The notes under the pieces were generated by a model. The model was given only the letters and a program-made list of their open reading frames with translations. It was not told the DNA's origin and made no database searches. Shown here piece after piece: positions 1,204 through 58,380 of a stretch of DNA of 64,000 nucleotides. Both the position numbers and the translations under genes were made by a program. The stretch's first letter is position 1. Every line of letters starts with the position of its first letter. Source of the DNA: Ignavibacteriales bacterium (lineage in GTDB: Bacteria; Bacteroidota; Ignavibacteria; UBA10030); NCBI GenBank assembly GCA_026390575.1, contig JAPLFR010000016.1:534737-598736 (forward strand), written 5' to 3'.

Positions 1204-1790
1204 AATTCAATAAAATTTTTCAGAAGCTGCAACCCGACTTTGCTGGATTTTTCAGGATGGAATTGAACCCCGTAATAATTCTTTTGTTGCATTGCTGATG
1301 TGAATTGTACATCATAGTCCGTCATACCGATGGTTGCCGGAACAATCGGTGCGTAATAGGAATGGACAAAATAGAAATATTCGCCAAATTTAATTCCGGA
1401 GAATAACGGATTTTTACCATCCTGCTGAACCTGGTTCCATCCCATGTGTGGTACTTTGAGTTTGGACTTTTCGCTCTTGAACCGCTCGTTTGTTCCGGAA
1501 ATCATACCGAGGCAATCGGTGGCTCGTTCTGTCGTATGTTCAAATAACAATTGCATTCCCAGACAGATTCCAAGAAATGGAACGGTCACTTCTTTCAGCC
1601 AATCAGTGAGCCCAGCGCGTATAAGTGCATCCATCGCACTTCGTGCTTCGCCGACTCCAGGAAAAATAAGTTTATCGGCTTTATTAAGTTCACCGCAATC
1701 ATGAGAGATAAAATGCGGTACACTGAGCCGATTGAGCGCATTGCTTACCGATCGAATATTGCCAGCACCGTAATTAATAATCCCAATCAC
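1194..1790 (-). CDS. hisH: Imidazole glycerol phosphate synthase glutaminase subunit HisH
   Basis: 198 aa class-I GATase with catalytic Cys motif GICLGMQLL and C-terminal HPEKS. Overlaps hisA and hisB by a few nt. Confidence 0.9.
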   Translation of the reverse strand: MIGIINYGAGNIRSVSNALNRLSVPHFISHDCGELNKADKLIFPGVGEARSAMDALIRAGLTDWLKEVTVPFLGICLGMQLLFEHTTERATDCLGMISGTNERFKSEKSKLKVPHMGWNQVQQDGKNPLFSGIKFGEYFYFVHSYYAPIVPATIGMTDYDVQFTSAMQQKNYYGVQFHPEKSSKVGLQLLKNFIELCS

Positions 1791-3921: not shown

Positions 3922-3933
3922 ATGATTGAGCTA

Positions 3934-5223
3934 TTACTTTAAAAGTCGGGATGTGACAGCGCGGGCATGTGCCTGTAAACCCTCGACAGACGCAAACGCG
4001 GTTAATGTCGGTGCCAAGCTTTCAAGGCCAGATTTCGTAATAGATTGAAACGTAACATTTTTCAGAAAACTATCAAGTGAGACTCCACTTGCCCAGCGGG
4101 CAGTACCGCTGGTCGGCAACGTATGGTTTGTGCCCGACGCATAATCTCCCGCCGTTACTGGAGCAAATTGTCCCACAAACACAGATCCGGCATTCATAAT
4201 CGATGGAACAATTGCTTCAGCATTTTGCATATTGATGATGAGATGCTCCGGCGCATAATCGTTAGAAAATCTCACAGCCGACTCAAATGAATTCGCAATA
4301 ACAATGTAGCCGTGTTCCAATGATGACTCGACAATTTTATTCCGTGGAAATTCTGATGCATTCTGCGGTAAAATTCGCAGTACTTCCTTCGCTAATAATT
4401 CACTTGTTGTTACCAGCACAACCTGAGCATCAGCATCGTGTTCTGCCTGGGAGAGCAAATCATACGCTACAACTTCCGGATTCGCTGTTTCATCAGCAAG
4501 AATAAGAACTTCAGATGGTCCAGCAAGTAAATCAATTGCTGCACCCTCAGGATCGGTCGAAACGAATTGTTTCGCAGCGGTCACGTAGCGATTGCCCGGA
4601 CCGAATATTTTATGAACCTTCGGAATGGTTTCTGTTCCGTATGCCATCGCTGCAATTGCCTGTGCACCGCCAACTTTGTACACTTCAGTAATTCCAATCA
4701 TTGCTGCGGCTGCAAGCACGAGCGGATCGACAGTGCCATTCGTCTTCGGCGGTGAACATAACACGATGCGCGAACATCCAGCAAGCACTGCCGGTATTCC
4801 AAGCATCAATACTGTTGACGGCAACGGTGCCGAACCAGCAGGCACGTATAAACCAACCCGTTCAAGAGGGCGAGCTTCACGCCAGCATACAACACCTTCC
4901 ATTGTTGTGATACGCTGTGTTTTATTCAACTGAGATTCATGGAACGTACAGATATTTTTTGATGCAACATGTAATGCGTCTCTAAATTCAGGTGAGAGCT
5001 GTTTTTTTGCCGCTTCAAATTCTTCTGACGATACACGAATTGTTTGCACTTCCGCTTTATCAAACTTTCTGCTATACTCATGCACCGCGTCGTCGCCACG
5101 CCGTTTGATCGTGAGGCACACTTCCTGAATGATATTCCCAGAATCGCTTTGTAGAGTGCTCGGACGCTGAAGAAGAGAAATGCGTTCTTCTCTCGTCAAT
5201 GTATTTTCAGAATAAATCTTCAT
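3934..5223 (-). CDS. hisD: Histidinol dehydrogenase
   Basis: 429 aa with characteristic HisD motifs (GPGNRYVTAAK, QAEHD, DYxAGxNHxLPT). Confidence 0.9.
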   Translation of the reverse strand: MKIYSENTLTREERISLLQRPSTLQSDSGNIIQEVCLTIKRRGDDAVHEYSRKFDKAEVQTIRVSSEEFEAAKKQLSPEFRDALHVASKNICTFHESQLNKTQRITTMEGVVCWREARPLERVGLYVPAGSAPLPSTVLMLGIPAVLAGCSRIVLCSPPKTNGTVDPLVLAAAAMIGITEVYKVGGAQAIAAMAYGTETIPKVHKIFGPGNRYVTAAKQFVSTDPEGAAIDLLAGPSEVLILADETANPEVVAYDLLSQAEHDADAQVVLVTTSELLAKEVLRILPQNASEFPRNKIVESSLEHGYIVIANSFESAVRFSNDYAPEHLIINMQNAEAIVPSIMNAGSVFVGQFAPVTAGDYASGTNHTLPTSGTARWASGVSLDSFLKNVTFQSITKSGLESLAPTLTAFASVEGLQAHARAVTSRLLK

Positions 5224-6095
5224 CGGATAATCGTTTCAATAGGCACCACAATAATATCACTGGCGCCTGCCTTTTTAAGTTTTTCCATCACATCCCAAAA
5301 TACATCTTCTGCCACGACAGAGTGAATTGCTACCATGCCCGTTTCTGCAAGCGGCACCACCGTCGGACTTTTCAAACTCGGAATAACACGCTTCAACCTC
5401 GCGACAGAATCAGCCGGTGCATTCATCATAAGATAACGCTTGCCGCCAGCTTCCTGCGAACCATGAACACGAATCATGAGTCGATCGATAACTGCGCGTT
5501 TTTTCTTATCGCGCATCGATGCCGGATTTGCTACCAGCACTGCCTGTGATTCTAATACGGTGCAGAATGTGCGCAAACCGTACATCTTTGCAGTGGTGCC
5601 GGTTGAGACTATATCACAAATGACATCGGCAACATTAAGGCTCGGAGCCAATTCCACCGAACCGCTCAATTCGACAATTTCCGCACGTACCTTATTGTCT
5701 TTTAAAAATGATTTGAGAATTGTAGGATACGTTGTGCCGATACGCTGACCATTCAAGTCCGAGATTTTACGAACAGCAGATCTCTGCGGCACACTGATCA
5801 TGAGTTTACATCCGCCGAATCCCAGCGGTGCAAGGAGATGGACATGGGCGTTTCGCTCCTGCAGTACATTTTCTCCGATGATTCCAAGATCCGCAACACC
5901 ATCCTGCACATATTCAGGAATATCATCATCCCGAATCGCCAGCACATCCAGGTCAAAGTTGTTGCAGGGTGAGTAGAGACTTTGTTTTTGAAATTCAAAA
6001 CTTAATCCGCATGCACGGAGCAACGAAACCGAATCTTCGGTAAGACGTCCGTTCCGCTGGATTGCTATTTTCATTCTTCCATTTGTCGCAAGCAT
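5220..6095 (-). CDS. hisG: ATP phosphoribosyltransferase (long form with C-terminal regulatory domain)
   Basis: 291 aa. MKIAIQRNGRL...DLGIIGENVL...TGTTAKMYGL motifs. It is the first gene of the minus-strand his operon. Confidence 0.9.
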   Translation of the reverse strand: MLATNGRMKIAIQRNGRLTEDSVSLLRACGLSFEFQKQSLYSPCNNFDLDVLAIRDDDIPEYVQDGVADLGIIGENVLQERNAHVHLLAPLGFGGCKLMISVPQRSAVRKISDLNGQRIGTTYPTILKSFLKDNKVRAEIVELSGSVELAPSLNVADVICDIVSTGTTAKMYGLRTFCTVLESQAVLVANPASMRDKKKRAVIDRLMIRVHGSQEAGGKRYLMMNAPADSVARLKRVIPSLKSPTVVPLAETGMVAIHSVVAEDVFWDVMEKLKKAGASDIIVVPIETIIR

Positions 6096-8424: not shown

Positions 8425-9399
8425 ATGAAAATACTTGCATTCGCAGAACAAAGAGACAATAAATTTAAAAAGTCGGCATTTGAAGTTATTCGCACAGCTC
8501 GAACAATCGCAGATCAAACAGGCGGAGACGTCATTGCTTTGGTTATCGGCGATCAAGTGCAAGCCATTGCCGGCGAGCTTGGCGGATACGGCGTATCGAA
8601 GGTTCTTATCGTCGAACAATCGAAACTTGGAAAATATTCTTCCACCGCATACGCCAAAATCATTGCGGAGGCGGCAAAAAAAGAACAGGCAGATATCATT
8701 TTTCTTTCTGCAACAGCAATGGGCAAGGATGCAGCGGCGCGTATTGCCGTGAAACTTGATGCCGGCCTTGCTTCAGATTGCACAGCTTTAAAAGTTGATG
8801 GCGGCAATATTATCGCAACACGTCCCGTGTATGCGGGCAAAGCGCTGACCGAAATAAAAATCAATTCGGCTGTTAAGGTTTTTACGCTTCGTCCTAATGT
8901 CTTTCCCGCCGGAGCAAGCACCGGTGCCGCGGCAACTGTTGAGGTCATGGATATTCCTCTTGCCGAATCAGATTTCGCATCGCTTGTCATTGAAACGATG
9001 CAAGCATCCGGCAAAATAGATGTTGCAGAAGCGGATATTATCGTTACCGGCGGACGCGGAATGAAGGGTCCGGAGAATTTTAAAATGATTGAAGACCTCG
9101 CTCATGTTCTTGGTGGAGCTGTCGGAGCTTCGCGCGCCGTTGTTGATGCCGGCTGGCGTCCGCACAATGAGCAAGTTGGACAAACCGGAAAGACTGTTTC
9201 ACCATCACTCTACATTGCTGTGGCAGTCTCGGGAGCTATTCAACATCTTGCCGGTATGTCATCCTCAAAGTATATCGTTGCCGTCAACAAAGACAAAGAC
9301 GCACCTATTTTTCAGATTGCTGATTATGGTATCGTGGCCGATGCATTTGTAATCGTTCCTGCAATCATGCTCGAAGCGAAAAAGCTTCTCGGGAAATAA
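8425..9399 (+). CDS. etfA: Electron transfer flavoprotein alpha subunit
   Basis: 324 aa with C-terminal FAD-binding region (VAVSGAIQHLAGMSSSKYIVAVNKDKDAPIFQIADYGIVADAF). Confidence 0.85.
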   Translation: MKILAFAEQRDNKFKKSAFEVIRTARTIADQTGGDVIALVIGDQVQAIAGELGGYGVSKVLIVEQSKLGKYSSTAYAKIIAEAAKKEQADIIFLSATAMGKDAAARIAVKLDAGLASDCTALKVDGGNIIATRPVYAGKALTEIKINSAVKVFTLRPNVFPAGASTGAAATVEVMDIPLAESDFASLVIETMQASGKIDVAEADIIVTGGRGMKGPENFKMIEDLAHVLGGAVGASRAVVDAGWRPHNEQVGQTGKTVSPSLYIAVAVSGAIQHLAGMSSSKYIVAVNKDKDAPIFQIADYGIVADAFVIVPAIMLEAKKLLGK

Positions 9400-9400: not shown

Positions 9401-9991
9401 ATGTCCACAGAGGACAAAGTTCAAGTCGATATTCTAGGATTGTCCAGCAGTCAAGCCAGCGGCGGTGCATACGCGCTGATTTTAAAAGAGACCAACGGGG
9501 CACGCCGGCTGCCTATTATCATCGGTGCGTTCGAAGCACAATCCATTGCATTAGAAATGGAAGGCATCAAACCTCCGCGTCCGCTGACGCACGATCTCAT
9601 AAAGAATCTTATCGATCTGCTTGGCGGCGAGCTCATAGATGTCCTGATTAGCGAATTACGCGATGGCACCTTCTACGCCCGCATCAATCTTGACACACAA
9701 GAAATAGACTCGCGCCCGAGCGATGCGATTGCGATCGCTGTACGGTACGGTGCACCAATTTATGTTGCCGAAAAAGTAATGGCAGAAGCGTCGTTTGTGT
9801 CTGAAGGCGGAGAAGAAGAAAAAGCAATTCCACCCAATGCGAAACCTGAACAGGAAGAACCACCTAATCCCCAGCTTTCTCAGCTCGAACAATTGACAAA
9901 ACGTCTTGAGGACGCCATCGCCAAAGAAGATTATGAAAAAGCGGCGCAACTGCGCGATGAGCTTAAAAAGCTTCAAGGGCGAAATTCATAA
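9401..9991 (+). CDS. Bifunctional nuclease family protein (BFN/DUF151) with C-terminal UVR motif
   Basis: 196 aa. LPIIIGAFEAQSIALEMEGIKPPRPLTHDL matches the BFN domain. The C-terminal EDYEKAAQLRDELKKL is a UvrB/C-type UVR motif. Confidence 0.7.
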   Translation: MSTEDKVQVDILGLSSSQASGGAYALILKETNGARRLPIIIGAFEAQSIALEMEGIKPPRPLTHDLIKNLIDLLGGELIDVLISELRDGTFYARINLDTQEIDSRPSDAIAIAVRYGAPIYVAEKVMAEASFVSEGGEEEKAIPPNAKPEQEEPPNPQLSQLEQLTKRLEDAIAKEDYEKAAQLRDELKKLQGRNS

Positions 9992-10063
9992 CATAATTCT
10001 TTGGTATCATACAACAATTCATTTGGCATTTTTCTTCACTTACATATCAAGGAGGATCATACC

Positions 10064-10864
10064 TTGAAACACATTTCCAATTCTCTGTTACTCATTCTTT
10101 TTGTTGGCCTTTGTGTGTCTGCAGCGAACGTTTACGCGGCAACCGTTGCAGACGATTCAAACAAAGTCAGTCAATTGATTGCGGAAGGAAATAACTTTTC
10201 AGAAAAAGTGTTTGACAACAAGAAAGCATTGGAAAAGTACAACGAAGCGCTTTCTCTTTCACCAAATGATTATGAAATCCTCTGGCGACTGAGCCGCACT
10301 TATGTTGACATCGGTGAACATCTTTCCGGTAAAACGGATGCAGAAAAACAAAAGCAACTGGAATTTTATGAGAAGTCTTTAGACTATGCAAAAAAAGCGA
10401 TTGCTGCCAACCCTCAGGGTGCAATGGGGTATACAAGAGAAGCAATTGCGAATGGTCGCATTGCACTCTTCCGTGGTGTTTTTGAATCGCTGAGTCTCGT
10501 TAAACAAACAAGGGCAGATTGTGAAAAAGCAATTTCTCTCGATGTAACAGAGCCGGCAGCATACTACGTACTGGGGCGCACAAATGCAAAGCTTTGCGAG
10601 AAACCAAAGTTTGTTCGCTGGCCATTGGGAATTGGTTGGGCAAACATGGATGATGCAATAAAGAATTACGAAAAATCAATCGAATTACGTCCGAACTTTA
10701 TAATGTACCGACTCGATTGTGCCCGCGCCTACGTTGAGATGGATGAATATGGAAAGGCGCGCGGGCATTTGATAAAAATTGCAACGTTGCCTAAAGAAGA
10801 CGAAGACGATGATGTCTTTCGGAAAGAAGCGTTAGAGTTGATAGAGAAGATAAAAGATAAGTGA
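10064..10864 (+). CDS. Secreted tetratricopeptide-repeat protein
   Basis: Start reassigned to TTG at 10064, preceded by AAGGAGG. This gives the signal peptide KHISNSLLLILFVGLCVSAANVYA. The remainder is TPR-like helical repeats. Confidence 0.55.
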   Translation: MKHISNSLLLILFVGLCVSAANVYAATVADDSNKVSQLIAEGNNFSEKVFDNKKALEKYNEALSLSPNDYEILWRLSRTYVDIGEHLSGKTDAEKQKQLEFYEKSLDYAKKAIAANPQGAMGYTREAIANGRIALFRGVFESLSLVKQTRADCEKAISLDVTEPAAYYVLGRTNAKLCEKPKFVRWPLGIGWANMDDAIKNYEKSIELRPNFIMYRLDCARAYVEMDEYGKARGHLIKIATLPKEDEDDDVFRKEALELIEKIKDK

Positions 10865-10887
10865 AGAACTACGAGACGGAAAAAGGA

Positions 10888-12075
10888 ATGATTATGGAAC
10901 ATAAGAAAGAATGTCCGGGCAAAGATAAATATTTAACCGGAAAGCGTGTTCTTCCCGCACCAATTTCCAAAGAGAGTACTCTTGCATCCGTTATTGACAA
11001 CATGGATGCTTACAATGGCGGAAGACTGAGAGCGGCGTGTCAATTACTGCGTGATAAATACTCCCAGGAAGATGTGACTATTGGTTTGAGTATTGCAGGT
11101 GCAATGACACCCGCAGGACTCGGTCCATCGACCATTATTCCATTAATGAATCATGGATTTGTAGATTGGCTCGTTGCAACCGGTGCGAATATGTACCACG
11201 ATCTCCATTTTGCTTTCAATATGCCGCTCTTCCGCGGTAGTCATAACGTGGATGATGCCGATCTTCGCGACAAAGGGGTGACAAGAATTTACGACATCCT
11301 TTTTGATTATCAAGATGTACTGATGGAGTCAGATAAAATTTTACGGAAAATTATGCTGCGTCCTGAATTCCAAAAGGAGATGGGAACCCGGGAATACTAT
11401 TATCATCTTGGCAAAGTGATCAATGAATACGAGCATAAGAGTAATATCGGTCAGGTAAGTGTGCTCGCGGCTGCATATCGAAATGGTATTCCAGTCTTCA
11501 CATCCTCCCCCGGCGATTCAACAATTGGTATGAATGTAGCTGGATTGGAATTGCTTGCAGAAGCATCCGGAATGCTCGATCGATTCAAACTCAAGATTAA
11601 TCCGAGTATCGACGTCAACGACTCGACCGCCATCATACTGAACGCCAAGCAATATGAAAAAGGAAAAACCGGCGTTATTCTCATCGGCGGCGGCAGCCCC
11701 AAGAATTTTATGCTACAAACTGAGCCGCAAATTCAGGAAGTATTGATGATTCCTGAAGCAGGTCAGGATTATGATATTAATATCACCGATGCACGACCGG
11801 ACACTGGCGGTCTTTCCGGTGCACCGCCAAGCGAAGCGGCCAGCTGGGGTAAAATAGATCCTACTAAACTTGACGAAACGGTAACCGCATATGTAGATTC
11901 GACTATTGCCTTTCCACTCATGGCGGCTTATGTCATACAAACAACAAAGCCAAAGAAACTGAAACGACTGTACGATCGCGGCGATGAACTTCGGCAGAAA
12001 CTTATCAAATCGTATCTTGAAAACAATAAAGAAGTTGAGGAATTAAAATCGCTTATGAATAAGCTTTTTGCATAA
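10888..12075 (+). CDS. Deoxyhypusine synthase-like protein (possible homospermidine synthase)
   Basis: Aligns by eye to eukaryotic/archaeal DHS. Ours: GARPDTGGLSGAPPSEAASWGKIDP...YVDSTIAFPLMAAYV. Human DHS: GSDSGARPDEAVSWGKI...YADASLVFPLLVAETF. Start set at the ATG following a GAAAAAGGA RBS. The ORF track starts 27 nt earlier at a GTG. Confidence 0.7.
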   Translation: MIMEHKKECPGKDKYLTGKRVLPAPISKESTLASVIDNMDAYNGGRLRAACQLLRDKYSQEDVTIGLSIAGAMTPAGLGPSTIIPLMNHGFVDWLVATGANMYHDLHFAFNMPLFRGSHNVDDADLRDKGVTRIYDILFDYQDVLMESDKILRKIMLRPEFQKEMGTREYYYHLGKVINEYEHKSNIGQVSVLAAAYRNGIPVFTSSPGDSTIGMNVAGLELLAEASGMLDRFKLKINPSIDVNDSTAIILNAKQYEKGKTGVILIGGGSPKNFMLQTEPQIQEVLMIPEAGQDYDINITDARPDTGGLSGAPPSEAASWGKIDPTKLDETVTAYVDSTIAFPLMAAYVIQTTKPKKLKRLYDRGDELRQKLIKSYLENNKEVEELKSLMNKLFA

Positions 12076-12169: not shown

Positions 12170-13303
12170 ATGAAAGAAGCGCTTCTGAAATTAGTAGAAC
12201 AGCATGGCACTCCGTTGTTCATACTCGATCACGATAAAATTCGGGAAAACTACCGGACATTTAAAAAACACTTACCGCGGGTTCAGTGTTATTACGCAGT
12301 CAAAGCAAATTCCACTCAGCAGATTATCGAGACTTTGTTCAAAGAAGGATCCAGTTTTGATGTAGCATCATACAACGAATTCATGCAGGTGTACCAGTAT
12401 ATAAAACATTTCGACAAAAAAGATAAAAAGCATTTTGTCTGGGATAAGATTATTTTTTCCAACACAATCAAAGACAAAATCACGCTGAGCAAGATCAAGC
12501 AATACAAACCCTTGGTGACATTTGACAATAGCGACGAACTGAAAAAGCTAAAAGATCATTGCGAGACTGCAGGATTGGTTGTGCGGCTGAAAGTTCCAGA
12601 TACCGGTTCACAAGTTGAAATGAGTTCAAAATTTGGCGCCGAACCTGCCGATGCACAAAAACTGATACAACAAGCATTCGATATGGGATTAAAGGTTGAA
12701 GGTATTAGTTTTCACGTAGGCAGCCAATGTACAAATTTCGACAATTTCACAGCAGCGCTTGCTATCACTTCAGAGATTTTTAACGATGCCCGTAGAAAAG
12801 GATTCAATCTCAATTTGGTAGATATTGGCGGCGGATTTCCAGTTCCGTACGATCCGCAAGTACCGGAATTTAAAGTTCTTGCCGGTTTATTGAATTCAGA
12901 ATTCAAAAGGCTGTTCCCGGATGACATTGAAATTCTTGCTGAACCTGGACGTTTCATGGTAGCAACCGCCGCGACGCTCGTTTCTGAAATCATCGGCAAA
13001 GCCCGCAGAGATGGAAAAGTATTCTATCATATCAATGATGGGGTGTATCATACTTTTTCTGGAGTAGTATACGATCATTGGATTCCGAACTTCAGTGCTT
13101 GGAAGGAAGGTGAAAAAGAAATATGCGCAGTGGTCGGACCCACATGCGACAGTTTCGATAAAATTACGTTATCGGCGGAACTGCCGGCAAGCCTGGAAGT
13201 TGGCGATTATCTTTTAACTGACAATATCGGAGCGTACAGTACAGCGTCGTCTACAAAATTTAACGGATTCAACGGATCAAAAATTATACACATGAATTTG
13301 TGA
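12170..13303 (+). CDS. Ornithine decarboxylase-like PLP-dependent decarboxylase (alanine-racemase fold, eukaryotic-type ODC family)
   Basis: 377 aa. YAVKAN PLP-lysine motif, GGGFPVPYD, and C-terminal GAYSTASSTKFNGF matching the ODC GAYTVAAASTFNGF. Confidence 0.75.
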   Translation: MKEALLKLVEQHGTPLFILDHDKIRENYRTFKKHLPRVQCYYAVKANSTQQIIETLFKEGSSFDVASYNEFMQVYQYIKHFDKKDKKHFVWDKIIFSNTIKDKITLSKIKQYKPLVTFDNSDELKKLKDHCETAGLVVRLKVPDTGSQVEMSSKFGAEPADAQKLIQQAFDMGLKVEGISFHVGSQCTNFDNFTAALAITSEIFNDARRKGFNLNLVDIGGGFPVPYDPQVPEFKVLAGLLNSEFKRLFPDDIEILAEPGRFMVATAATLVSEIIGKARRDGKVFYHINDGVYHTFSGVVYDHWIPNFSAWKEGEKEICAVVGPTCDSFDKITLSAELPASLEVGDYLLTDNIGAYSTASSTKFNGFNGSKIIHMNL

Positions 13304-13310
13304 GATATTA

Positions 13311-13739
13311 TTATTCATCGATTTGTGCGACAGTACCACGGTTTATTCGCGCCTGTACTAACTTACCAATCCAAGCACTCATCGAAGTATAAGAAAATAC
13401 CACAACTGCCCAAAAGTAATAGAAACCAATGGTTTTAGGTATAGAATAATGACTCACTGCCATTGTTCCGTAATACAATAATGCTGAAATACCCGGTTCA
13501 AATATTGCTTTCCCTTTTGAGCGATAGCCGATATAGAATGCAATGACTATAGTTTCAAGGGTGGCAATTAATCGGACTATAGTGGGGGTGTTAATCAGGA
13601 CGTTTAAAATATTAATATTTATATAGACCAGCACAACGCTGAAAATAATGCCGGGTAATAAAAGAACGACAACCATAAAACAATACCCAATTCCTACCCA
13701 CCTCCAATCAATATGAATTTTCTTATCCGTTCTGAGCAT
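13311..13739 (-). CDS. Small polytopic membrane protein (4 predicted TM), unknown function
   Basis: 142 aa of strongly hydrophobic segments. Last gene of a minus-strand run. Confidence 0.5.
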   Translation of the reverse strand: MLRTDKKIHIDWRWVGIGYCFMVVVLLLPGIIFSVVLVYININILNVLINTPTIVRLIATLETIVIAFYIGYRSKGKAIFEPGISALLYYGTMAVSHYSIPKTIGFYYFWAVVVFSYTSMSAWIGKLVQARINRGTVAQIDE

Positions 13740-13772
13740 TTTCTTTCTCCTTACTACAAAAACGATATACTC

Positions 13773-14567
13773 TTACTCTTTAAACTTACCGAAATATTGC
13801 CAATCACTCATTTTTCCATGGTTATCTATTCGCACTTTAACACTGGCATCCGAATAAATCTTTGATTGGCCGGTGAGAATAACAGTACTATCCATACCGG
13901 ATGTTGTATATGTGCCATTTTCAGTCTCTGAAAGTTTAACTGGTAATATATATCCAATAAACGATCCATGACCACCGCCCAATTCATGAGGCAATGCTTT
14001 ATACTGATGCACTTGCCAGGCAGTCGCATTGAGATCATTGATGATATTGTCCTTGTTGGTTTGGATTGCCGTCGAGGCTCTCAATGGGTTATCTATTATT
14101 TTTATTTCTATATACATTTTCAAAAAAGAATAGATTGCCAAGGCAAGAATAAAGGAACCTCCAATTATTGACAATATCGTATATGCTCGAGGAACATTAT
14201 TATTCTTTTCTGTCGTTTTTTCTTCGTATCGTTTCTTCCAACCCAAGAAAAAGAGGGCCGGTGCAATGATAAAAAGAAGAATGCTGATGAGCAAATAAAG
14301 ACGCTGAGAAAAAGGAACAAGATCAAGCGGGCTGCCTGAGAATTCTTTTTCACTATTCTTTATGGTTAAGTTTGATGCTTTATTCCAAGGCGAAGAGGTA
14401 ATGCCGAAATTTCTATCAGATGTTCGATCAGGTAGGAAATAATAATTGAAAAAAAGTGAAAAGAGCACAGCGCCAGTGAGAATGACAAGCATGAATATAA
14501 AATCATTAGAGAAACCCAACGGCTCTTTCTTTTTATCCGGTTCAGGAGTATCAATTTTCTGATTCAT
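13773..14567 (-). CDS. Membrane protein (3 TM plus ~120-aa C-terminal domain), unknown function; distant paralog of the next gene
   Basis: 264 aa. TM segments then a soluble C-terminus. The segment STVILTGQSKIY resembles LTVLTDTQVIVVAQDRY of the 14551..15207 product. Confidence 0.5.
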   Translation of the reverse strand: MNQKIDTPEPDKKKEPLGFSNDFIFMLVILTGAVLFSLFFNYYFLPDRTSDRNFGITSSPWNKASNLTIKNSEKEFSGSPLDLVPFSQRLYLLISILLFIIAPALFFLGWKKRYEEKTTEKNNNVPRAYTILSIIGGSFILALAIYSFLKMYIEIKIIDNPLRASTAIQTNKDNIINDLNATAWQVHQYKALPHELGGGHGSFIGYILPVKLSETENGTYTTSGMDSTVILTGQSKIYSDASVKVRIDNHGKMSDWQYFGKFKE

Positions 14568-15207
14568 GGTTTACTCCTTGCTCTGTGAGAATAAATTTTT
14601 CCTGTATGGTCCCTTTTTTGCCATTGATATTTTCAAAAAGCGGATTTCTTCCTCGTGCGTATCTATCTTGCGCAACGACTATTACTTGAGTATCTGTTAA
14701 AACAGTCAATGTGCATACCATTGAGGTATCCCATGCCTCGTGTAACTGATGGATATTTGATTGCACGGGAGCATGTGGATATGTTTGCTGAAATATTTGA
14801 CCAAGAGTAGTATTCTTTACTTTTCCTTGAGTATGAAAGAGCTCAAGAACTTCGATGAGGTCATTCGGTACTTCAGATAAAATCAAGTCACGGCCAATAA
14901 TACTTCTAATCGAAAGAAGCGTTTCTTTCTGCCAATAACTTTGATTTTCCGAGGTGATCCATGTCGTGATGATACAACCCAAGACGACAATACTGCAAAT
15001 CACAGCGATAATGCGTGTCCGTACTGGGAAAGGATACCTTAATGTATAGATCATAAGTGCTGCAATGTAAAGCATTGCAATTATTCCGGCAGTATCCATC
15101 GAGGGCCACAATTCTGGCGAATTGCCCGGAAGAAAGAAACCAATGGTTACAATGGTGATGCCGACAAGAAGCCATTTTACTATCATATTACCCCCTATTC
15201 TGAACAC
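14551..15207 (-). CDS. Membrane protein (3 TM plus C-terminal soluble domain), unknown function
   Basis: 218 aa. Overlaps the downstream gene by 17 nt. Similar architecture to the 13773..14567 product. Confidence 0.5.
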   Translation of the reverse strand: MFRIGGNMIVKWLLVGITIVTIGFFLPGNSPELWPSMDTAGIIAMLYIAALMIYTLRYPFPVRTRIIAVICSIVVLGCIITTWITSENQSYWQKETLLSIRSIIGRDLILSEVPNDLIEVLELFHTQGKVKNTTLGQIFQQTYPHAPVQSNIHQLHEAWDTSMVCTLTVLTDTQVIVVAQDRYARGRNPLFENINGKKGTIQEKFILTEQGVNHESEN

Positions 15208-15293
15208 AAAGTATAAAGAAGCTCTACATGTTCAAACAAATGAGTTAAAATATGCAGTTCGTTGTCGATTGCTATATTGGCATTGTCACGATG

Positions 15294-16700
15294 CTAAAAA
15301 TAACTTGATCCATCCCAGCAATGTGTGCAGAGTTTCTCCTTGGGTAGTCCTATCGCTTCGACCAGATCATCCAGTTTCTGATATTGTAAAGATGTAAAAT
15401 CAAGTCTCTTCCTAACTTGTTCTACCATAGATTTGTATTTATCATTTTCGGGATCAGAATACCCTTTCATATCGCAATCTTCTCTACCGGTAAGTTCTTT
15501 GACTGCAATGTACGATGCGAGATCCATGTTAGATCTAGAGCGGCTGAAATTAAGAAACTCACATGGAAATGTGAGAGGTGGACATGCGATACGCATGTGA
15601 ACTTCCTTCATACCCGCATCATGCAAATCACGCACGTTATCTTTCAGCTGGGTGCCCCGCACAATCGAGTCATCAAGGAATATTCCTCGTTTTCCTTTTA
15701 TCACCGATTCATTTGGTATGAGCTTCATTTTGGCAACTAAGTCACGCATATGTTGGCTTTGCGGCATAAAACTCCGCGGCCATGTAGGCGTGTATTTTGC
15801 ATAGGGCCTTTTTAACGGAATTCTTTTTTCGTTACTGTATCCCATCGCATGCCCAATGCCGGAATCAGGAATGCCTGCAACAAAGTCCGCCTCTACAGAA
15901 TCTCTCTTGGCAAGTGCTGCACCGCAGCGGTAACGGCATTCGTCGACATTTTTGCATTCATAAAACGATGGCGGATAACCATAATACACCCAGAGAAATG
16001 AACATATTTGCATGTTATCATTCGGCTTGCGCAATTGTTCATATCCATCTGCCGTGATACGTATAATTTCTCCGGGGCCTATATATTTTTCAATCTCATA
16101 GTTCAGGTTCGGGAATGCGCATGTTTCAAAAGCAACGGCATACGCTTCTTTTTTCTTTCCTAAAACAATGGGTGTCCTTCCAAGTTTATCGCGGGCCGCA
16201 ATAATGCAATCCTCAGTTAAAATCAATATGGAGCAAGAACCTTTCACAAGATCATACACATTTTGTATACCGGATGTAAAGTCATCCCCTTCGGCAATCA
16301 GCATTGCAACCAGTTCAGTTGGATTAATTGCACCCTGACTCGTTTCTGTAAATGTGTGCCGCAATTTTAGGCATCGCTTTTCTAACTCTGCAATGTTGAC
16401 AATCTTGCTTACCGTTGCCACAGCAAAGCGTCCCATATGCGATGTAACAAGAATCGGCTGAGCGTCAGTATCGCTGACGACACCGATTCCAAGATTTCCT
16501 GTGAAGCCGGTAATATTGGCTTCAAATTTATTTCTGAAATATCCGTCTTCTAGACTATGAATGGCACGCTGAAATCCGTTCTCTTGAGAGAAGAATGACA
16601 TTCCTCCCCTTTTTGTGCCGAGGTGAGAATGATAATCGGTGCCGTAAAAAACATCCGACACACAGGAATGTTTTGCGATACTGCCAAAAAATCCACCCAT
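15294..16700 (-). CDS. Amidophosphoribosyltransferase (PurF)-like protein with catalytic N-terminal Cys replaced by Gly
   Basis: 468 aa. PRTase motifs: DDSIVRGTQ and PCEFLNFS (cf. PCFYGID). C-terminal CTHCWDGSSYF resembles the PurF Fe-S CxxC region. The Ntn domain begins MGGFFGS where PurF has (M)CGIVG. Upstream AAGGAAAATT precedes the ATG. No in-frame Cys codon is available. Confidence 0.7.
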   Translation of the reverse strand: MGGFFGSIAKHSCVSDVFYGTDYHSHLGTKRGGMSFFSQENGFQRAIHSLEDGYFRNKFEANITGFTGNLGIGVVSDTDAQPILVTSHMGRFAVATVSKIVNIAELEKRCLKLRHTFTETSQGAINPTELVAMLIAEGDDFTSGIQNVYDLVKGSCSILILTEDCIIAARDKLGRTPIVLGKKKEAYAVAFETCAFPNLNYEIEKYIGPGEIIRITADGYEQLRKPNDNMQICSFLWVYYGYPPSFYECKNVDECRYRCGAALAKRDSVEADFVAGIPDSGIGHAMGYSNEKRIPLKRPYAKYTPTWPRSFMPQSQHMRDLVAKMKLIPNESVIKGKRGIFLDDSIVRGTQLKDNVRDLHDAGMKEVHMRIACPPLTFPCEFLNFSRSRSNMDLASYIAVKELTGREDCDMKGYSDPENDKYKSMVEQVRKRLDFTSLQYQKLDDLVEAIGLPKEKLCTHCWDGSSYF

Positions 16701-16824
16701 AATTTTCCTTATGCAAGAATAAATATTTGGGGATGAAAAAATCTAGGCTGCGATGATGAAACAACATCGCTACAATAATACAAGAATATTTCTAATTATC
16801 TTAGAACTATTTTGAGGAAGACAT

Positions 16825-18042
16825 TCAGGCTATATGTAAACTTGTTGGATTCTTTTCACGCCGCTTCTTGAACATCAATGCAAAATAAACGCCGAGCATT
16901 AACAACACAGCTGATAGTATGTACGGTCCAGAATGATGAATCTCGTACAAAAAGCCAGAAAGAATCGGTGCTATCACCATATATGCAGACATCAGCGCAG
17001 AGAGAACTCCCATCGTCTCTCCTTTCTTTGAAGGATCGGCTGCGGCTGCAGCTTGACTTGTAATAACAACGCGGAGTATAGCCTGGCCTGTTCCTGAACC
17101 AAGAAAGCTCAGATAAAACAACAATAAGATTTCTGTCGAGACCATGAGAGAGGAAATCGCTAGCACTAGAAGCATCATAATTTCAAGTTTTGACTCCGAA
17201 AATTTTTCCAGCCAAAACTTCTTAAGTAGAAAGCCCTGGTTCATCACAACAATCACACCGACCATCGTGAACATCATCCCGGTTTGAAACGCGCTAAATC
17301 CAAACACATCTTTTACAAATAGACCGAAGACTGTCTGGCTTGTTACAATGGCGAAGGCAAAGAATGACCATGTGAAATAAAGCGGGCGCAATTTTTCATC
17401 TCGTGCTGCTCGCATGAGCGGTGCAAGTGGATTAAAATTCATCGGACTGTGCGCATCGCGTTTATGATGTGTCTCTGGTAGAAAGAAAAATGCAGAGACA
17501 GCGTTTGTTGTGGCAAGTGCACCCGCGATCCAAAATGGAAATGCATGCGACACTTTACTTAACGCACCGCCAATCAAAGGGCCTAAAATGAATCCTATAC
17601 CGAATGCCGCTCCAATAAGTCCAATATTTGCGGACCGCTCCTTTTCATCTTTCGCAAGATCTACCATATAACTTTGTGCCGTCGTGAAGTTTCCTGCAGC
17701 GCATCCGTCGATAATACGGCCAAGGAAAAGCATCCAAAGAGAATGTGCACTCGCAAAGACGAACCATCCTATTGCCGTGCTGGCAACACTGAGAAGAAAG
17801 ATCGGTCTTCGTCCGATTCTATCTGACCACGCTCCGAGCAGCGGCGCACTCAAGAACGAAAAAAAGGAAAATGTGGCAAATAAAAGCGTAACGATGACTG
17901 CCGAAGCGCCGAATTCCGTAACATAGAACGGCAAGATAGGAATGACAATGCCGAATCCGATGACATCGACCAGAACAGACGAAATAACAATGAGTTTTTG
18001 TTTTTGCATATTTGAATTTAAAATAATATTAATTTGAATCAA
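16825..18042 (-). CDS. MFS transporter (drug:H+ antiporter/TCR-like)
   Basis: 405 aa with 12 hydrophobic segments and MFS motif GAWSDRIGRRPIF between TM2 and TM3. Confidence 0.75.
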   Translation of the reverse strand: MIQINIILNSNMQKQKLIVISSVLVDVIGFGIVIPILPFYVTEFGASAVIVTLLFATFSFFSFLSAPLLGAWSDRIGRRPIFLLSVASTAIGWFVFASAHSLWMLFLGRIIDGCAAGNFTTAQSYMVDLAKDEKERSANIGLIGAAFGIGFILGPLIGGALSKVSHAFPFWIAGALATTNAVSAFFFLPETHHKRDAHSPMNFNPLAPLMRAARDEKLRPLYFTWSFFAFAIVTSQTVFGLFVKDVFGFSAFQTGMMFTMVGVIVVMNQGFLLKKFWLEKFSESKLEIMMLLVLAISSLMVSTEILLLFYLSFLGSGTGQAILRVVITSQAAAAADPSKKGETMGVLSALMSAYMVIAPILSGFLYEIHHSGPYILSAVLLMLGVYFALMFKKRREKNPTSLHIA

Positions 18043-18178: not shown

Positions 18179-19234
18179 GTGATGCCCGAAGTTACTTTGA
18201 AAGATATCCTTGCTGACCATACGAAAGAAGGCGAACTATACACCAAGTTATCAAATAACTGGGTGCAGTGTTTTGCTTGCGGACATCGATGTAAAGTCCC
18301 GCCGGATAAGGATGGAATTTGCAAAATTCGATTCAATCGACACGGAACGCTATTTGTTCCGCAGGGGTATGTCTCCGGTATTGCAATTGATCCAATAGAA
18401 AAGAAACCATTTTTTCATGCCTATCCGGGATCTTCTACTTTAAGTTTCGGTATGCTTGGCTGCGATTTTCATTGCTCATTTTGTCAAAACTGGATAACCT
18501 CACAAACTCTGCGCGATCCTCATGCCGTTTCTACTATCGAGGTAATAACGGCTGAAGAAATTGTTCGTCTTGCTCTTCGGCATAAAACGCCAATCATCAC
18601 CAGTACCTACAACGAACCGCTCATTACAACTGAATGGGCTGTAGAAATATTCAAACTTGCAAAGAAGGCCGGACTTGTTACTTCGTATGTGTCGAACGGC
18701 AATGCCACGCCGGAAGTGCTCGACTATCTTCAGCCGTGGATTGATCTCTATAAAGTTGATTTGAAATCATTCCGTCAAAAAGCATATGGACAAATGGGCG
18801 GAGTGCTGCAGCATGTGCTTGACACAATCCCATCTCTGCACAAGCGCGGTAAGTGGGTTGAAGTCGTTACGCTTGTTGTTCCGGGAATGAATGATTCAAA
18901 CGAAGAATTAACCGATATCGCCAAATTTATTCATTCCGTCTCGCCTGATATTCCTTGGCACGTGACGGCATATCACCAGGGATATAAAGTGACAGGTGAA
19001 GAGTTCACTCCCATCTCCACACTCATTCGTGCGGCAGAGATCGGTTACAAAGAAGGATTGCACTTTGTCTATACAGGCAATCGTCCGGGACAAACGCGCA
19101 ACTACGAGAATACGTATTGTTATTCTTGTAACGAACTGCTTATTGAGCGCCGAGGGTTCCAGGTATTGCGTAACCGAATATCAAACGGAACGTGCTTCAA
19201 ATGCGGCACAAAGATAGCCGGCAGATGGAAATGA
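18179..19234 (+). CDS. AmmeMemoRadiSam-system radical SAM enzyme (PFL-activase-like)
   Basis: 351 aa. CDFHCSFCQN CX3CX2C cluster motif. N-terminal C-rich CFACGHRC and overall pattern of the AmmeMemoRadiSam radical SAM family. Confidence 0.7.
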   Translation: MMPEVTLKDILADHTKEGELYTKLSNNWVQCFACGHRCKVPPDKDGICKIRFNRHGTLFVPQGYVSGIAIDPIEKKPFFHAYPGSSTLSFGMLGCDFHCSFCQNWITSQTLRDPHAVSTIEVITAEEIVRLALRHKTPIITSTYNEPLITTEWAVEIFKLAKKAGLVTSYVSNGNATPEVLDYLQPWIDLYKVDLKSFRQKAYGQMGGVLQHVLDTIPSLHKRGKWVEVVTLVVPGMNDSNEELTDIAKFIHSVSPDIPWHVTAYHQGYKVTGEEFTPISTLIRAAEIGYKEGLHFVYTGNRPGQTRNYENTYCYSCNELLIERRGFQVLRNRISNGTCFKCGTKIAGRWK

Positions 19235-21706: not shown

Positions 21707-22891
21707 ATGTCGAACGAAAACAAACTTGACCTGCAGGCATTAAAAGAGCGCATCGGCAAACATCTGCGGACAGCAGATGAATTTACACGCTACCAGCGTT
21801 ACGAAGAAGCAATTTTAGAAATAGACTCTGCCTTAAAAATCGATCCAAAAAATAATTTCGCACGCTCGTTTCTTGAACGAGTCAAGCTCATGCAAAAACG
21901 CTCACAACAAAACGCAGCCGTGCAAAGCGGTCCGGCAGAGCTGACGCTGGAAGAGCGTATGGAAATTATTTCCCGGCACCTTTCTACGGCAGAAGATTTT
22001 GTCAACAAAAAAGATTATAAAGCTGCACTGGAAGAGATTGCAGAGGTTTATAAAATTGACCCCAAGAATTACTATGCCCAAACATTTTCCGAACGGATTG
22101 ATACATTGATGCAAGAAGGAAGTGTTGATGGGGCGAAGTTATTCAAACCGGTACTACAGGCAGAAGAATCAGACCGTGTGAGGCCTCAAGAGGATGAACG
22201 GGGCAGCATCATTATGTATCGTGAGCTTCTTAAAAATGTCTGGCTCGATGGAAAGGTAAGCGACGAGGAGGCACAGGAACTCACCGCTGTGCGAGAGCTG
22301 TTCGGCATTACTCAGGAAGACCATGAAAAACTTGAGCGCCATGTTAAAATTGAAGCGTATCTCGAAGCACTCCACATTGCATGGCGGAACAATCTTCTGA
22401 CAGAAGCAGAAAAGAAGACCCTGCACATGATGCGTGAAAAATATGACATCTCGCCGGAAGAACAAAAAATCTCAGAAGCGCGATACGATGAGGTGAAACG
22501 TCCATCAAAGTCGCACGGTACAATCCTTATTGTTGATACCGATCGAAAGATACTTGTGTCATTGGGCAAAGCCCTCAAACAACGGGGATATACTATCCTG
22601 ATGGCACAGAAAGTAGAAGACGCTTACCAGATTCTTTCCGCACAGACTCCTCATATCATCATGTCGGAACTCTTTTTTACGAATTCACAAATTGACGGTG
22701 TAGCCTTTTTCGAGAAGCTGCGAGAACATTCTGTCCTTAAGGATGTGCCATTTGTTATTATGAGTTCTCTTACTGATAGGAAAATTATTCAAGCAGGTTT
22801 GCGCCTCGGTGTTGATCATTATATCACGAAGCCGGTTGATATCGACTTATTATTAGCAATAATAGATGGAAAGTTGCGAACGTCATTGTGA
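21707..22891 (+). CDS. Atypical response-regulator-like protein: TPR-like hairpins + TerB-like repeats + receiver domain with phospho-acceptor Asp->Glu
   Basis: 394 aa. Repeated YKIDPKN helical hairpins and a repeated W.DG...E..L...R..Y.IS.EE module. C-terminal REC (ILIVDTD...PHIIMSELFF...SSLTD...ITKPVD) with E at the phosphorylation site. Confidence 0.6.
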   Translation: MSNENKLDLQALKERIGKHLRTADEFTRYQRYEEAILEIDSALKIDPKNNFARSFLERVKLMQKRSQQNAAVQSGPAELTLEERMEIISRHLSTAEDFVNKKDYKAALEEIAEVYKIDPKNYYAQTFSERIDTLMQEGSVDGAKLFKPVLQAEESDRVRPQEDERGSIIMYRELLKNVWLDGKVSDEEAQELTAVRELFGITQEDHEKLERHVKIEAYLEALHIAWRNNLLTEAEKKTLHMMREKYDISPEEQKISEARYDEVKRPSKSHGTILIVDTDRKILVSLGKALKQRGYTILMAQKVEDAYQILSAQTPHIIMSELFFTNSQIDGVAFFEKLREHSVLKDVPFVIMSSLTDRKIIQAGLRLGVDHYITKPVDIDLLLAIIDGKLRTSL

Positions 22892-23237
22892 CCCCGCAAA
22901 TATTCTCGTTCGCTTGGATTTAAAAGTCGTTGAAACAGCATCAATAATATTGCTTTATACGAATGCAGAAAAAAGGAAATAAGAAGGAATAGATTGCCCC
23001 GGAATAATTCTACCAATCACTGCATAACTGCACGGCACTTTTGGTCAGAGACATTGTCTTACCGCTCATGAAGTAGATAAGTATACAAAAAAATCGAAGA
23101 AAAACGCACATCCATCGATTGTATGTCTGCTGTATCACATCTTGTTCCTACATCACATTCGGTTTCCCATCCGTAATATATCTTTCATTCGAAAATTCAT
23201 TGAAGTAATATTTACAATAGAATGAAAACATAATAAT

Positions 23238-24545
23238 TTGGATTCATCGAAAATGGAAAAAACAATGTTCACGAAAAGACCACTTTCTGTTGATACAACA
23301 AAAGAATTCACCGGCGAACATCTTCGAGAGGCAGACAAGTTCGTCCGTCTCAAACGGTATGATGACGCCTTGCAGGAAATTGAAACCGCCTATAAAATTG
23401 ATCCGAAAAACGCATACATTCGTTCTTTTCTTGAACGGACACAGTATATGATCGAGAAGGAAAATGAAAAGCGATCGCAGGTGTTCGGTGAAACGAGCAA
23501 GACGAACGAAGACCGTATGGAAGTCATATCAGAATTGTTCGCATCCGCAGAAACCTTCACGAAGGAAAAAAAATACCCAAAAGCATTGAATGAGCTGGCA
23601 AAAGTATATCGTATTGATCCAAAGAATTATAACGCCCATGCATTATCAGATCGTATCGTGGCATTGATGCGGGCTGAAAAGGACTTACCTAAAACGCAGA
23701 CTCCTCAATCTATCGAATCAACGCCGGACATAGTTCTGTTAGAAAAACCAGTCAATGTTGTAGAAAACGAAATACCAACGCAGCCTGTAGATATTCCGCA
23801 GCCGCAATCAACACCAATCAGCGAGCAGCAAGAAGAGTTTAGCCGGTTCGCATTATACAGGGAGTTGCTCAAGGAATGCTGGGCAGACGGTGTTATTACT
23901 CACGAAGATTCTGAGATGCTTCATCGTGCGCGTTCACAATATTCAATTTCCTTTGATACCCATTGCCAAATTGAAGTTGACATCAAGATCGATGCGTACG
24001 TTGACGCGTTACGTATTGTGTGGAGAGACGGCGTTGTGGATGATCATGAAAATGAAATCTTAGAAATCATGCGTAAGAAATACGGAATCACACAGGAAGA
24101 ACAAGCGGCAGCAGAGAAGAAATTTTCTGCATTTCGTACAACCAACCAATCAAAGGCAATGATCCTGATCGTAGAGAATGATCATGATAACTCGATATAT
24201 GTTGCGCGGGCACTTATGAATCATGGCTATGATGTTAAAATTGAACGACACCCGGATGATGCGATTCACTTTCTAAGCACACATACACCGGATCTCATTC
24301 TGAGTGAAGCTGTTTTTCCACAAGTGAACACAGATGGTTTTGAGTTCTTTCAGAGAACGCGTTTGGACAAACGGTTGAGTCCGATACCATTTCTCATGAT
24401 GACGGAACTCGGCGATGCGCGCGTTATGCGAGCGGGATTACGCATGGGAGTGGATTATTTTATTCCCAAACCTTTACATATCGGTTACATGGTGGCAATT
24501 ATAGAGGGCAAACTCAAATCTGAACTGCAAACAACTTCGAAGTAA
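23238..24545 (+). CDS. Paralog of 21707..22891 (TPR-like + TerB-like repeats + pseudo-receiver, Asp->Glu)
   Basis: 435 aa with the same architecture. REC segment PDLILSEAVFPQ...MMTELGD...IPKPL. Confidence 0.6.
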   Translation: MDSSKMEKTMFTKRPLSVDTTKEFTGEHLREADKFVRLKRYDDALQEIETAYKIDPKNAYIRSFLERTQYMIEKENEKRSQVFGETSKTNEDRMEVISELFASAETFTKEKKYPKALNELAKVYRIDPKNYNAHALSDRIVALMRAEKDLPKTQTPQSIESTPDIVLLEKPVNVVENEIPTQPVDIPQPQSTPISEQQEEFSRFALYRELLKECWADGVITHEDSEMLHRARSQYSISFDTHCQIEVDIKIDAYVDALRIVWRDGVVDDHENEILEIMRKKYGITQEEQAAAEKKFSAFRTTNQSKAMILIVENDHDNSIYVARALMNHGYDVKIERHPDDAIHFLSTHTPDLILSEAVFPQVNTDGFEFFQRTRLDKRLSPIPFLMMTELGDARVMRAGLRMGVDYFIPKPLHIGYMVAIIEGKLKSELQTTSK

Positions 24546-41846: not shown

Positions 41847-41918
41847 TTCTCTGGCGAAACCTTCGCAAGGTTTACCTGTACAATCTATGAGACCATGCGA
41901 AGGTTATCGAGGCGACCA

Positions 41919-42905: not shown

Positions 42906-42909
42906 GACC

Positions 42910-58329: not shown

Positions 58330-58352
58330 TTGCGAATGAACTACAATTACTC

Positions 58353-58380
58353 CTGACAACTGAAAACTGATTACTGAGAA
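58353..58380. repeat. Second short array of the CTGAnnA heptad family (x4)
   Basis: ctgacaa ctgaaaa ctgatta ctgagaa in the argJ-argB intergenic region. Confidence 0.5.

Follow-up and report, generated by a model that had tools for sequence, protein, structure and literature searches.

Isozyme pairs in which one enzyme depends on ammonia and the other on glutamine are known from AsnA/AsnB and from the two kinds of NAD synthetase; in pairs of the AsnA/AsnB type the ammonia enzyme has no glutaminase domain or adopts another fold. For amidophosphoribosyltransferase (PurF), exchange of Cys1 of the E. coli enzyme for Ala or Ser led to loss of the glutamine activity, while ammonia was still used (Mei & Zalkin 1989, as summarised in PMC3261824). 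Among natural proteins, the closest analogue met with in the literature is Mlab_0150 from a methanogen, by its published description a PurF paralog with Ser for Cys1 that coexists with a Cys-containing PurF; the authors of that description doubted that it is the glutamine amidotransferase. The subject of the present analysis is a PurF-like protein of 468 amino acids (aa), starting MGGFFGS, which is encoded in a stretch of 64,000 nucleotides from an Ignavibacteriales bacterium (contig JAPLFR010000016.1; the whole stretch is hereafter called the window). This protein is an ordinary member of a large and old family of PurF paralogs and not a genome-specific oddity; its N-terminal nucleophile (Ntn)-type domain is, to judge from its residues, no longer able to hydrolyse glutamine, and its phosphoribosyltransferase (PRTase) half looks intact.

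Among Pfam families, the 468-aa protein was matched by GATase_7 alone (E = 2.5e-9). Against TIGR01134, the equivalog model of PurF (EC 2.4.2.14), it scored 198.1 bits and did not reach the cutoff of 350; the Phocaeicola ortholog, at 184.4 bits, also fell under this value. Solved PurF structures in the Protein Data Bank were matched, B. subtilis 1AO0 at E = 4e-49, and a family profile built from 27 members could be aligned over residues 3–410 with residues 2–411 of B. subtilis PurF (1AO0/1GPH) at E = 1.6e-56. The profile alignment puts Gly2 on Cys1 of the B. subtilis enzyme and so bears out the Gly-for-Cys substitution proposed in a first-pass annotation of the window. In B. subtilis numbering, the glutaminase residues correspond as follows: C1 to G2, R26 to L27, R72 to S76, Y73 to D77, N102 to V97, G103 to S98 and D127 to P127 (in E. 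coli the glutamine-binding and oxyanion residues are numbered R26, R73, Y74, N101, G102 and D127). Asn101, Gly102 and Arg26, to which the first-pass annotation had drawn attention, are thus found replaced by V97, S98 and L27. At the glutamine site, the sole residue retained is the Gly that follows R26 (G28), and the same pattern was seen in diverse family members. Since position 1 offers no side-chain nucleophile and the residues of the oxyanion hole and of glutamine binding are no longer there, hydrolysis of glutamine appears to be lost; the stand-in for Cys1 varies within the family (G, S, T or A) and is therefore not a conserved nucleophile.

Of the features that mark the PurF equivalog, Cys1, the glutamine and oxyanion residues and a score above the cutoff of the hidden Markov model are absent, and the loop that binds phosphoribosyl pyrophosphate (PRPP), the Arg and Lys residues of the flexible loop and four Cys residues matching the [4Fe-4S] ligands (putative here) are present. 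The PRPP loop D343-D344-S345-I-V-R348-G-T is identical to that of B. subtilis PurF (DDSIVRGT), the flexible-loop residues K302, R309, S310, Q316, R319 and K326 are kept together with the GIPDSG segment, C233 and C380 fall on C236 and C382, which are Fe-S ligands of B. subtilis PurF (putative ligands here), and the C-terminal CxxC matches that of PurF from plants and of the B. subtilis type. The motifs named in the first-pass annotation, FLDDSIVRGTQL, LTFPCEFLNF and LCTHCWDG, all occur in the protein. Conservation was read from a diverse alignment (A4) of 24 members that are 35–55% identical to the window protein. Invariant in A4 are K302, R309, S310, R319, K326, D344, S345, R348, C233, C380 and C461, and the other kept PRTase and Fe-S residues, C458 included, are conserved to at least about 90%. 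In conservation, the N-terminal domain falls little short of the PRTase domain (top-residue frequency 0.52 vs 0.58): its first 40 residues rank with the best conserved of the alignment, M1, G3, Y23 and G33 being invariant and G6, G20, D22 and H26 conserved to at least 90%.

The closest likeness is therefore to the Fe-S type of PurF as solved for B. subtilis (1AO0, 1GPH), with which the length class, the PRPP loop, the flexible loop, the Fe-S cysteines and, as predicted from the strong sequence homology over residues 3–410, the two-domain layout are shared. Unlike that enzyme, the Cys-less protein has neither propeptide nor Cys1, carries GTDYHSHLG in place of LQHRGQ, and has R26, R72, Y73, N102, G103 and D127 replaced. 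It would thus be best described as a B. subtilis-type PurF minus the glutaminase half-reaction, and it is not a PurF equivalog as curated. The suggestion of the first-pass annotation that a glutaminase-dead or ammonia-dependent PurF paralog is encoded here gains support from this combination, in which Cys1 and six further residues are replaced and the PRTase motifs and Fe-S cysteines are retained.

The family was provisionally defined by a start M-[GSTA]-G-h-h-G, the motif [YF]G[TV]DY[HNQ]xH[LM]G, a length of about 468 aa and a C-terminal CxxC, which in the window protein read MGGFFGS, YGTDYHSHLGT and LCTHCWDGSSYF. The top 120 homologs, which belong to Ignavibacteria, Bacteroidales, Prolixibacteraceae and other groups, are 78–94% identical to the window protein; 114 have a length of exactly 468 aa, 115 start MSGFFG and 4 MGGFFG, and the label, where one was given, was 'amidophosphoribosyltransferase'. 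A search of 1.84 billion cluster representatives returned full-length relatives down to 36% identity, and the distant ones start MGGFFG, MSGLFG, MTGIFG or MAGLFG and have GTDYHSHLG where PurF has LQHRGQ. Loci were collected by a contig scan with patterns from one sequence (17 genome loci) and by a metagenome scan with the diverse alignment (80 loci, 56–79% identical), with flanks of up to 10 kb; among the PurF-like genes called in these loci, the commonest start was MGGFFG (44), followed by MSGFFG (36). Orthologs from gut Bacteroidales are 56–60% identical to the window protein. Exact look-ups identified proteins annotated as amidophosphoribosyltransferase in Phocaeicola vulgatus, Parabacteroides distasonis, Alistipes indistinctus, Bacteroides spp. 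and Segatella copri as family members; the 90%-identity clusters of these named orthologs hold 147 to 7395 members. The family ranges over Ignavibacteriota, Calditrichia and Bacteroidota and occurs in the majority of human-gut Bacteroidales. Homologs that naturally start with Gly, which the first-pass annotation had envisaged among canonical PurF enzymes, thus exist in thousands as putative enzymes. Full-text searches of the literature found no paper on a bacterial Cys-less PurF family.

Two irregular members were observed in these collections. In one Calditrichia metagenome-assembled genome (CAVZSQ01), a PurF-like copy about 81% identical lies on each of three contigs (L004, L015, L016), and the tblastn match is split in two pieces in all three, so that long-read frameshift errors and strain redundancy of the bin are probably seen here and not a true triplication. 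The 592-aa protein P0014 has an N-terminal extension of about 124 aa with Pfam PF24390; a true fusion or a wrongly called start could explain it.

At least two genomes encode both the Cys-less protein and a Cys-containing PurF. On an Alistipes-like gut contig (L071, 10001–14352), a PurF homolog of 633 aa (12451–14349) is encoded 1 kb downstream of the Cys-less gene. It keeps HECGIAF with the Cys, QHNRGQDGAG (R26), GHLRYGT (R72/Y73), GNFNLTN (N102) and KTDT (D127). L085 (3–2054) has the last 169 aa of a canonical PurF (157 bits against TIGR01134) upstream of the Cys-less gene, ending about 150 nt away from it. Because it adjoins a Cys-containing PurF in these two loci, the Cys-less protein is regarded as a paralog, in agreement with the status assumed in the first-pass annotation. 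The 633-aa form is a PurF homolog of the same genome with the same PRPP loop (VIDDSIVRGTT), and differs from its Cys-less neighbour in that the Cys and the glutamine residues are kept, in being 165 aa longer and in having no CxxC tail at its C-terminus; the glutamine-dependent enzyme is presumably this form. Two minor points were noted for this form: a rubrerythrin-like gene lies on the opposite strand between it and the Cys-less gene, and it scored only 117 bits against TIGR01134, so that both Bacteroidales PurF homologs are under the curated cutoff.

Across phyla, no conserved partner gene was found beside the PurF-like gene in the loci examined. In about 19 Bacteroidales loci from Bacteroides, Phocaeicola and Parabacteroides (among them L062, L064, L069, L072, L073, L075-77, L079, L089, L090, L094, L096-98, L100 and L107), the PurF-like gene is followed co-directionally by pepT (peptidase T, M20) and gcvT (aminomethyltransferase of glycine cleavage), and the outer flanks differ. 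This set may be an operon tied to glycine, one-carbon and ammonia metabolism; the link to gcvT, observed in one order only, would fit a supply of glycine, one-carbon units and ammonia to purine synthesis.

The protein is tentatively regarded as an ammonia-dependent phosphoribosylamine (PRA) synthase, an isozyme for anoxic, ammonia-rich habitats to which the neighbouring membrane-protein genes described below would not belong; a probability of about 0.45 is assigned to this reading. The enzyme would bind PRPP and make PRA from free ammonia (PRPP + NH3 → PRA + PPi), which would spare glutamine and ATP in the anoxic and ammonia-rich gut, sediments and digesters, and the remodelled N-terminal domain would then act as a lid, a channel or entry for ammonia, or a regulatory module. 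The ammonia-only activity of the E. coli Cys1 mutants, which likewise lack the N-terminal Cys, is the behaviour inferred for the family. Those mutants were made in the laboratory by point mutation; the rest of their glutamine site is intact and they have no Fe-S cluster, whereas the Cys-less family has the whole site remodelled and conserved in this form across phyla. Mlab_0150 differs in that it is by description a recent, lineage-specific purF duplicate (the sequences were not compared), whereas the Cys-less family is old and broad and has a signature of its own. As with AsnA/AsnB and the NAD synthetases, a bacterium would keep a free-ammonia version of an amidotransferase reaction, with the difference that the Cys-less family retains a dead but conserved domain. 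The purine-compatible context with pepT and gcvT in the Bacteroidales loci fits a PRA synthase of this kind and was counted in its favour.

Several observations weigh against this proposal. If free ammonia diffused to the PRTase site, only weak constraint would be expected on the N-terminal domain, and the constraint observed is nearly that of the PRTase domain; such strong conservation hints at a specific role for the former glutaminase site. It fits a regulatory pseudoenzyme or a new function of the N-terminal domain equally well, which is the main doubt. Coexistence with a Cys-containing PurF was seen as adjacency in only two genomes (L071 and L085), and no second PurF was found within the 64-kb window. 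At the corresponding locus of the close relatives L028, L029/30 and L031, the PurF-like gene is missing or truncated, so that it may be dispensable or relocated there. A model of the protein computed by AlphaFold2 with 27 close homologs reached a mean predicted local distance difference test (pLDDT) value of 52, which is too poor for inspection of the site.

Absence of catalysis altogether is considered unlikely: the protein would then bind PRPP and/or purine nucleotides, perhaps sense O2 through the Fe-S cluster, and either modulate the Cys-containing PurF through mixed oligomers or serve as a metabolite sensor. The loss of every glutaminase residue, the position beside a Cys-containing PurF in L071 and L085 and the high conservation of both domains, as expected under interface constraint, speak for a regulator of this kind, and the missing or truncated gene in L028, L029 and L031 may mean that it is dispensable. 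Yet not just the binding elements but also the catalytic elements of the PRTase (PRPP loop and flexible-loop Arg/Lys) are invariant among members of 35–55% identity, whereas a pure regulator would not usually keep catalytic residues so tightly, and most loci have no adjacent purF.

A repurposed enzyme, in which the remodelled N-terminal domain with its small N-terminal residue and the segment D22-Y23-H24-x-H26 performs a new chemistry, is likewise held to be improbable. Ammonia would here be drawn from a donor other than glutamine, or another amine would be coupled to PRPP, and the product would perhaps not be PRA made from free ammonia. The former active-site segments are the most conserved part of the N-terminal domain among the 35–55% identical members, only small residues (G, S, T or A) are seen at position 2, a pattern compatible with removal of Met and an exposed alpha-amine, and the Bacteroidales synteny includes gcvT, encoding an ammonia-releasing aminomethyltransferase, besides pepT. 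Against a repurposed enzyme stand the lack of a partner gene conserved across phyla, the limitation of the synteny to one order and the fact that the D-Y-H-x-H motif could be purely structural. The more specific proposal that the N-terminal domain feeds the PRPP site through a new reaction or sensing step, with another nitrogen donor or for a purine-insensitive PRA supply to thiamine, is viewed as rather improbable. If the domain did perform a new step, what most gut Bacteroidales carry under the name purF would turn out to encode an enzyme not recognised before.

The interest lies in the family, a common, conserved and routinely mislabelled PurF variant of which the window gene itself is an ordinary member. 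The label 'amidophosphoribosyltransferase' stands in thousands of genomes, those of the dominant human-gut Bacteroidales included, on a protein that fails the curated PurF model and lacks every residue needed for the use of glutamine. If the ammonia-dependent synthase is real, ammonia-loving anaerobes would have an unrecognised glutamine-independent entry to purine (and thiamine) synthesis, and metabolic models would need a second reaction; if the protein does something else, a very common and highly conserved gene of the gut microbiome is mis-annotated.

The four co-directional minus-strand open reading frames (ORFs) reported in the first-pass annotation were found as given, with spacings, from the PurF-like gene down, of an 86-nt gap, a 17-nt overlap and a 33-nt gap (Table 1). 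The three genes downstream of the PurF-like gene, hereafter the cassette, encode membrane proteins. The start of the first was later revised: homologs and public gene calls (211 aa) begin at Met8, whose ATG at 15186 is preceded by AGGGGG, and since this is most likely the true start, the gap to the PurF-like gene becomes 107 nt in place of 86. Three transmembrane (TM) helices and a soluble C-terminal domain of about 130 aa ending HESEN are predicted for cassette protein 1, and three TM helices followed by a C-terminal helix-and-beta domain of about 115 aa for cassette protein 2. An AlphaFold2 model of the latter (264 aa; pLDDT 47) shows a long helix and then five strands, which recalls pilins, although no likeness is claimed. 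Neither Pfam, NCBIfam, PADLOC nor PHROG yielded a family for the trio, the best matches being Tetraspanin at E = 0.0045 (below the cutoff) and a PHROG at E = 0.067. For cassette genes 1 and 2, a search of 5.8 billion proteins gave only 6 homolog clusters each, and these come exclusively from close relatives within the Ignavibacteriales. The cassette is constant as three genes (211–228, 257–264 and 137–151 aa), and the 17-nt overlap of genes 1 and 2 is present at every homologous locus. Distant paralogy of two of the products, as suggested in the first-pass annotation, was not supported, with BLASTP E values of at least 0.2 for all three pairs and a probability of 0.4% in hhalign for the two family profiles.

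That annotation had further taken the PurF-like protein and the three membrane proteins, perhaps with the upstream MFS transporter, as one membrane-associated module, a reading that the comparative data contradict and that is now very improbable. The genes are indeed co-directional, the gap of 107 nt contains no predicted terminator, and the succession of PurF-like gene and cassette is shared by three related lineages (the window, L025-27 and the contig of P0130). In this gap no terminator-like site was detected, the promoter and terminator pattern scans equalled the shuffled expectation, and the intergenic fold was no better than shuffles (z = -0.63). Among the 17 genome and 80 metagenome loci with a PurF-like gene, however, the trio is absent save in a few close Ignavibacteriales relatives, and its roughly 6 homolog clusters among 5.8 billion proteins stand against thousands for the PurF-like family. 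The nearest relative, L018, with a PurF-like protein of 94% identity, has neither the MFS gene nor the trio, so that the synteny set beforehand as a test of the module failed, and the trio occurs without the PurF-like gene at L029/L030 and L031/L032.

Gene orders within the clade were compared as follows. The window and 22 other contigs have the order radical SAM gene (rSAM), MFS, PurF-like gene, cassette and ornithine/diaminopimelate(DAP)-decarboxylase-like gene (ODC). In L025-27 and the P0130 contig, the alanine racemase gene (alr) precedes the PurF-like gene, cassette and ODC. L018 has rSAM, PurF-like gene and ODC with an 11-nt gap, and L001, L002 and L021 have PurF-like gene and ODC. L029/L030 read alr, cassette and ODC, with no PurF-like gene at the locus, and L031/L032 read rSAM, MFS, cassette, TPR, BFN and ETF, with neither PurF-like gene nor ODC. 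L028 reads MFS, a 202-aa fusion ORF and cassette. All four combinations of presence and absence are thus realised within one small clade. In the Ignavibacteriales clade, the PurF-like gene converges on the pair of ODC and the homospermidine-synthase-like gene (DHS) (L001, L002, L018, L021 and L025), and in the clade of the window the 3' end of the PurF-like gene normally borders on this ODC-DHS block. The MFS gene, whose place upstream of the PurF-like gene had been correctly described (MFS_1, E = 2.5e-54; matches to Tet families all under the cutoff), is not part of the conserved context of the PurF-like gene, being absent from L018, L001, L002 and L021; the direct succession of MFS and cassette in L031/L032 means that these two may be the more natural unit.

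The in-frame fusion ORF of L028 (1347–1955) takes the place of the PurF-like gene in this close relative (MFS 96% and ODC 93% identical). In it, a second, diverged copy of the membrane segment of cassette gene 1 (38% identity) runs into the C-terminal ~110 aa of the PurF-like protein; it represents a genuine variant produced by deletion or recombination, or else a chimera of the assembly.

The cassette and the PurF-like gene also differ sharply in selection regime and in divergence at synonymous sites. Between the window and L025, the PurF-like protein and ODC were 87–88% identical with dN/dS ratios of 0.03–0.04. For cassette proteins 1, 2 and 3 (13311–15186 in the window, 4669–6526 in L025), the codon alignments gave identities of 71, 60 and 53% (tblastn: 70, 58 and 48%) and dN/dS ratios of 0.25, 0.43 and 0.69, which suggests relaxed or diversifying selection on the cassette. 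At conserved residues, 52 of 154 four-fold sites differed in the cassette (0.34) vs 174 of 295 in the flanks (0.59; Fisher p = 4e-7). Because four-fold divergence is lower in the cassette than in its flanks, lateral exchange of the cassette among Ignavibacteriales lineages, more recent than the divergence of the host genes, is suggested. The cassette is a separate, clade-restricted accessory unit, and its adjacency to the PurF-like gene reflects local history in a rearrangement-prone spot and not function; small and fast-evolving, it is of lesser weight than the PurF-like family.

At the 5' end of the PurF-like gene, the good ribosome-binding site (RBS) described in the first-pass annotation was confirmed (AAGGAAAA, 5 nt upstream of the start). 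The accompanying statement that no in-frame Cys codon lies upstream has to be corrected, as a TGC is present 5 codons ahead of the ATG. No ATG, GTG or TTG lies between this TGC and the in-frame TAG, the TGC adjoins the RBS, its context C-I-R-K-I-M is unlike the C-G-[IV]-[FV]-G of PurF, and the codon is unconserved, the nearest relative L018 reading LKRNN-MGGFFG. An identical 468-aa protein is found on 23 contigs in public gene calls, and because the same protein recurs on these contigs and Gly or Ser is the family rule at the position, Gly in place of Cys1 is no sequencing error; an error restoring a Cys codon, which had been named as a possible objection, is thereby ruled out. That a sequencing error or wrong start conceals a normal Cys1 PurF, for which the upstream in-frame TGC might speak, is refuted by the lack of a start codon ahead of it, by a context that is not a PurF N-terminus, by the 23 identical contig copies, by the N-termini of hundreds of homologs of the same length that begin M-[GS]-G-F-F-G, and by the residue map with six further glutaminase residues replaced as well. 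A riboswitch or leader (e.g. Fibro-purF) was sought with Rfam, and no family reached the gathering score anywhere in the window; the sole match in the leader of the PurF-like gene was a chance one to a miRNA. Taken overall, the observation of the first-pass annotation is partly confirmed, being essentially right with three corrections of detail.

Table 1 Features around the PurF-like gene (positions counted from the first nucleotide of the window)
Feature	Position	Strand	Remarks
ETF gene	8425-9399		
BFN gene	9401-9991		
TPR gene	10001-10864		
Homospermidine-synthase-like gene (DHS)	10861-12075	+	Pfam and NCBIfam matches
Ornithine/DAP-decarboxylase-like gene (ODC)	12170-13303	+	Pfam and NCBIfam matches
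Cassette gene 3 (142 aa)	13311-13739	-	small polytopic membrane protein; ORF list, TM prediction
Cassette gene 2 (264 aa)	13773-14567	-	ORF list
Cassette gene 1	14551-15207	-	ORF as listed; start revised to Met8: 14551-15186, 211 aa
PurF-like gene (468 aa)	15294-16700	-	MGGFFGS...; ORF list
C-terminal tail, codons 401-468	15297-15500	-	ends C458-x-x-C461 (LCTHCWDGSSYF), putative [4Fe-4S] ligands
Type-I PRTase domain, codons 229-400	15501-16016	-	GIPDSG, flexible loop, PRPP loop, C233, C380
Ntn-amidotransferase-like domain, codons 1-228	16017-16700	-	family motif YGTDYHSHLGT at residues 19-29
5' leader of the PurF-like gene	16701-16745	-	in-frame TAG 16745-16743, in-frame TGC 16715-16713, RBS AAGGAAAA
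MFS (major facilitator superfamily; DHA1/Tet-like) transporter gene	16825-18042	-	ORF; called with 394 aa from Met12, 16825-18009
Radical SAM gene (rSAM)	18179-19234		AmmeMemoRadiSam-system enzyme, TIGR04337 270 bits

The immediate neighbours of the radical SAM enzyme gene include neither an AMMECR1 nor a Memo gene; the MFS gene lies on one side and, on the other, a gene whose 166-aa product is a membrane protein carrying CxxC...CPEC at its C-terminus. The setting is one of ordinary chromosomal housekeeping. By ORF layout and N-terminal sequences, 475–6095 on the minus strand resembles a run of histidine-biosynthesis genes, and 56096–61489 on the plus strand appears to contain arginine-biosynthesis-like genes. 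At 21707–24545, the products of two adjoining genes begin with a TPR-like region and end in a response-regulator receiver domain, an unusual order because the receiver stands at the C-terminus. A likely LemA-type gene, recognised by its N-terminal sequence only, is followed within 41283–44175 by two tandem M48-peptidase paralogs, both of which open with nearly the same SEPILT..RNIYEQQA segment.

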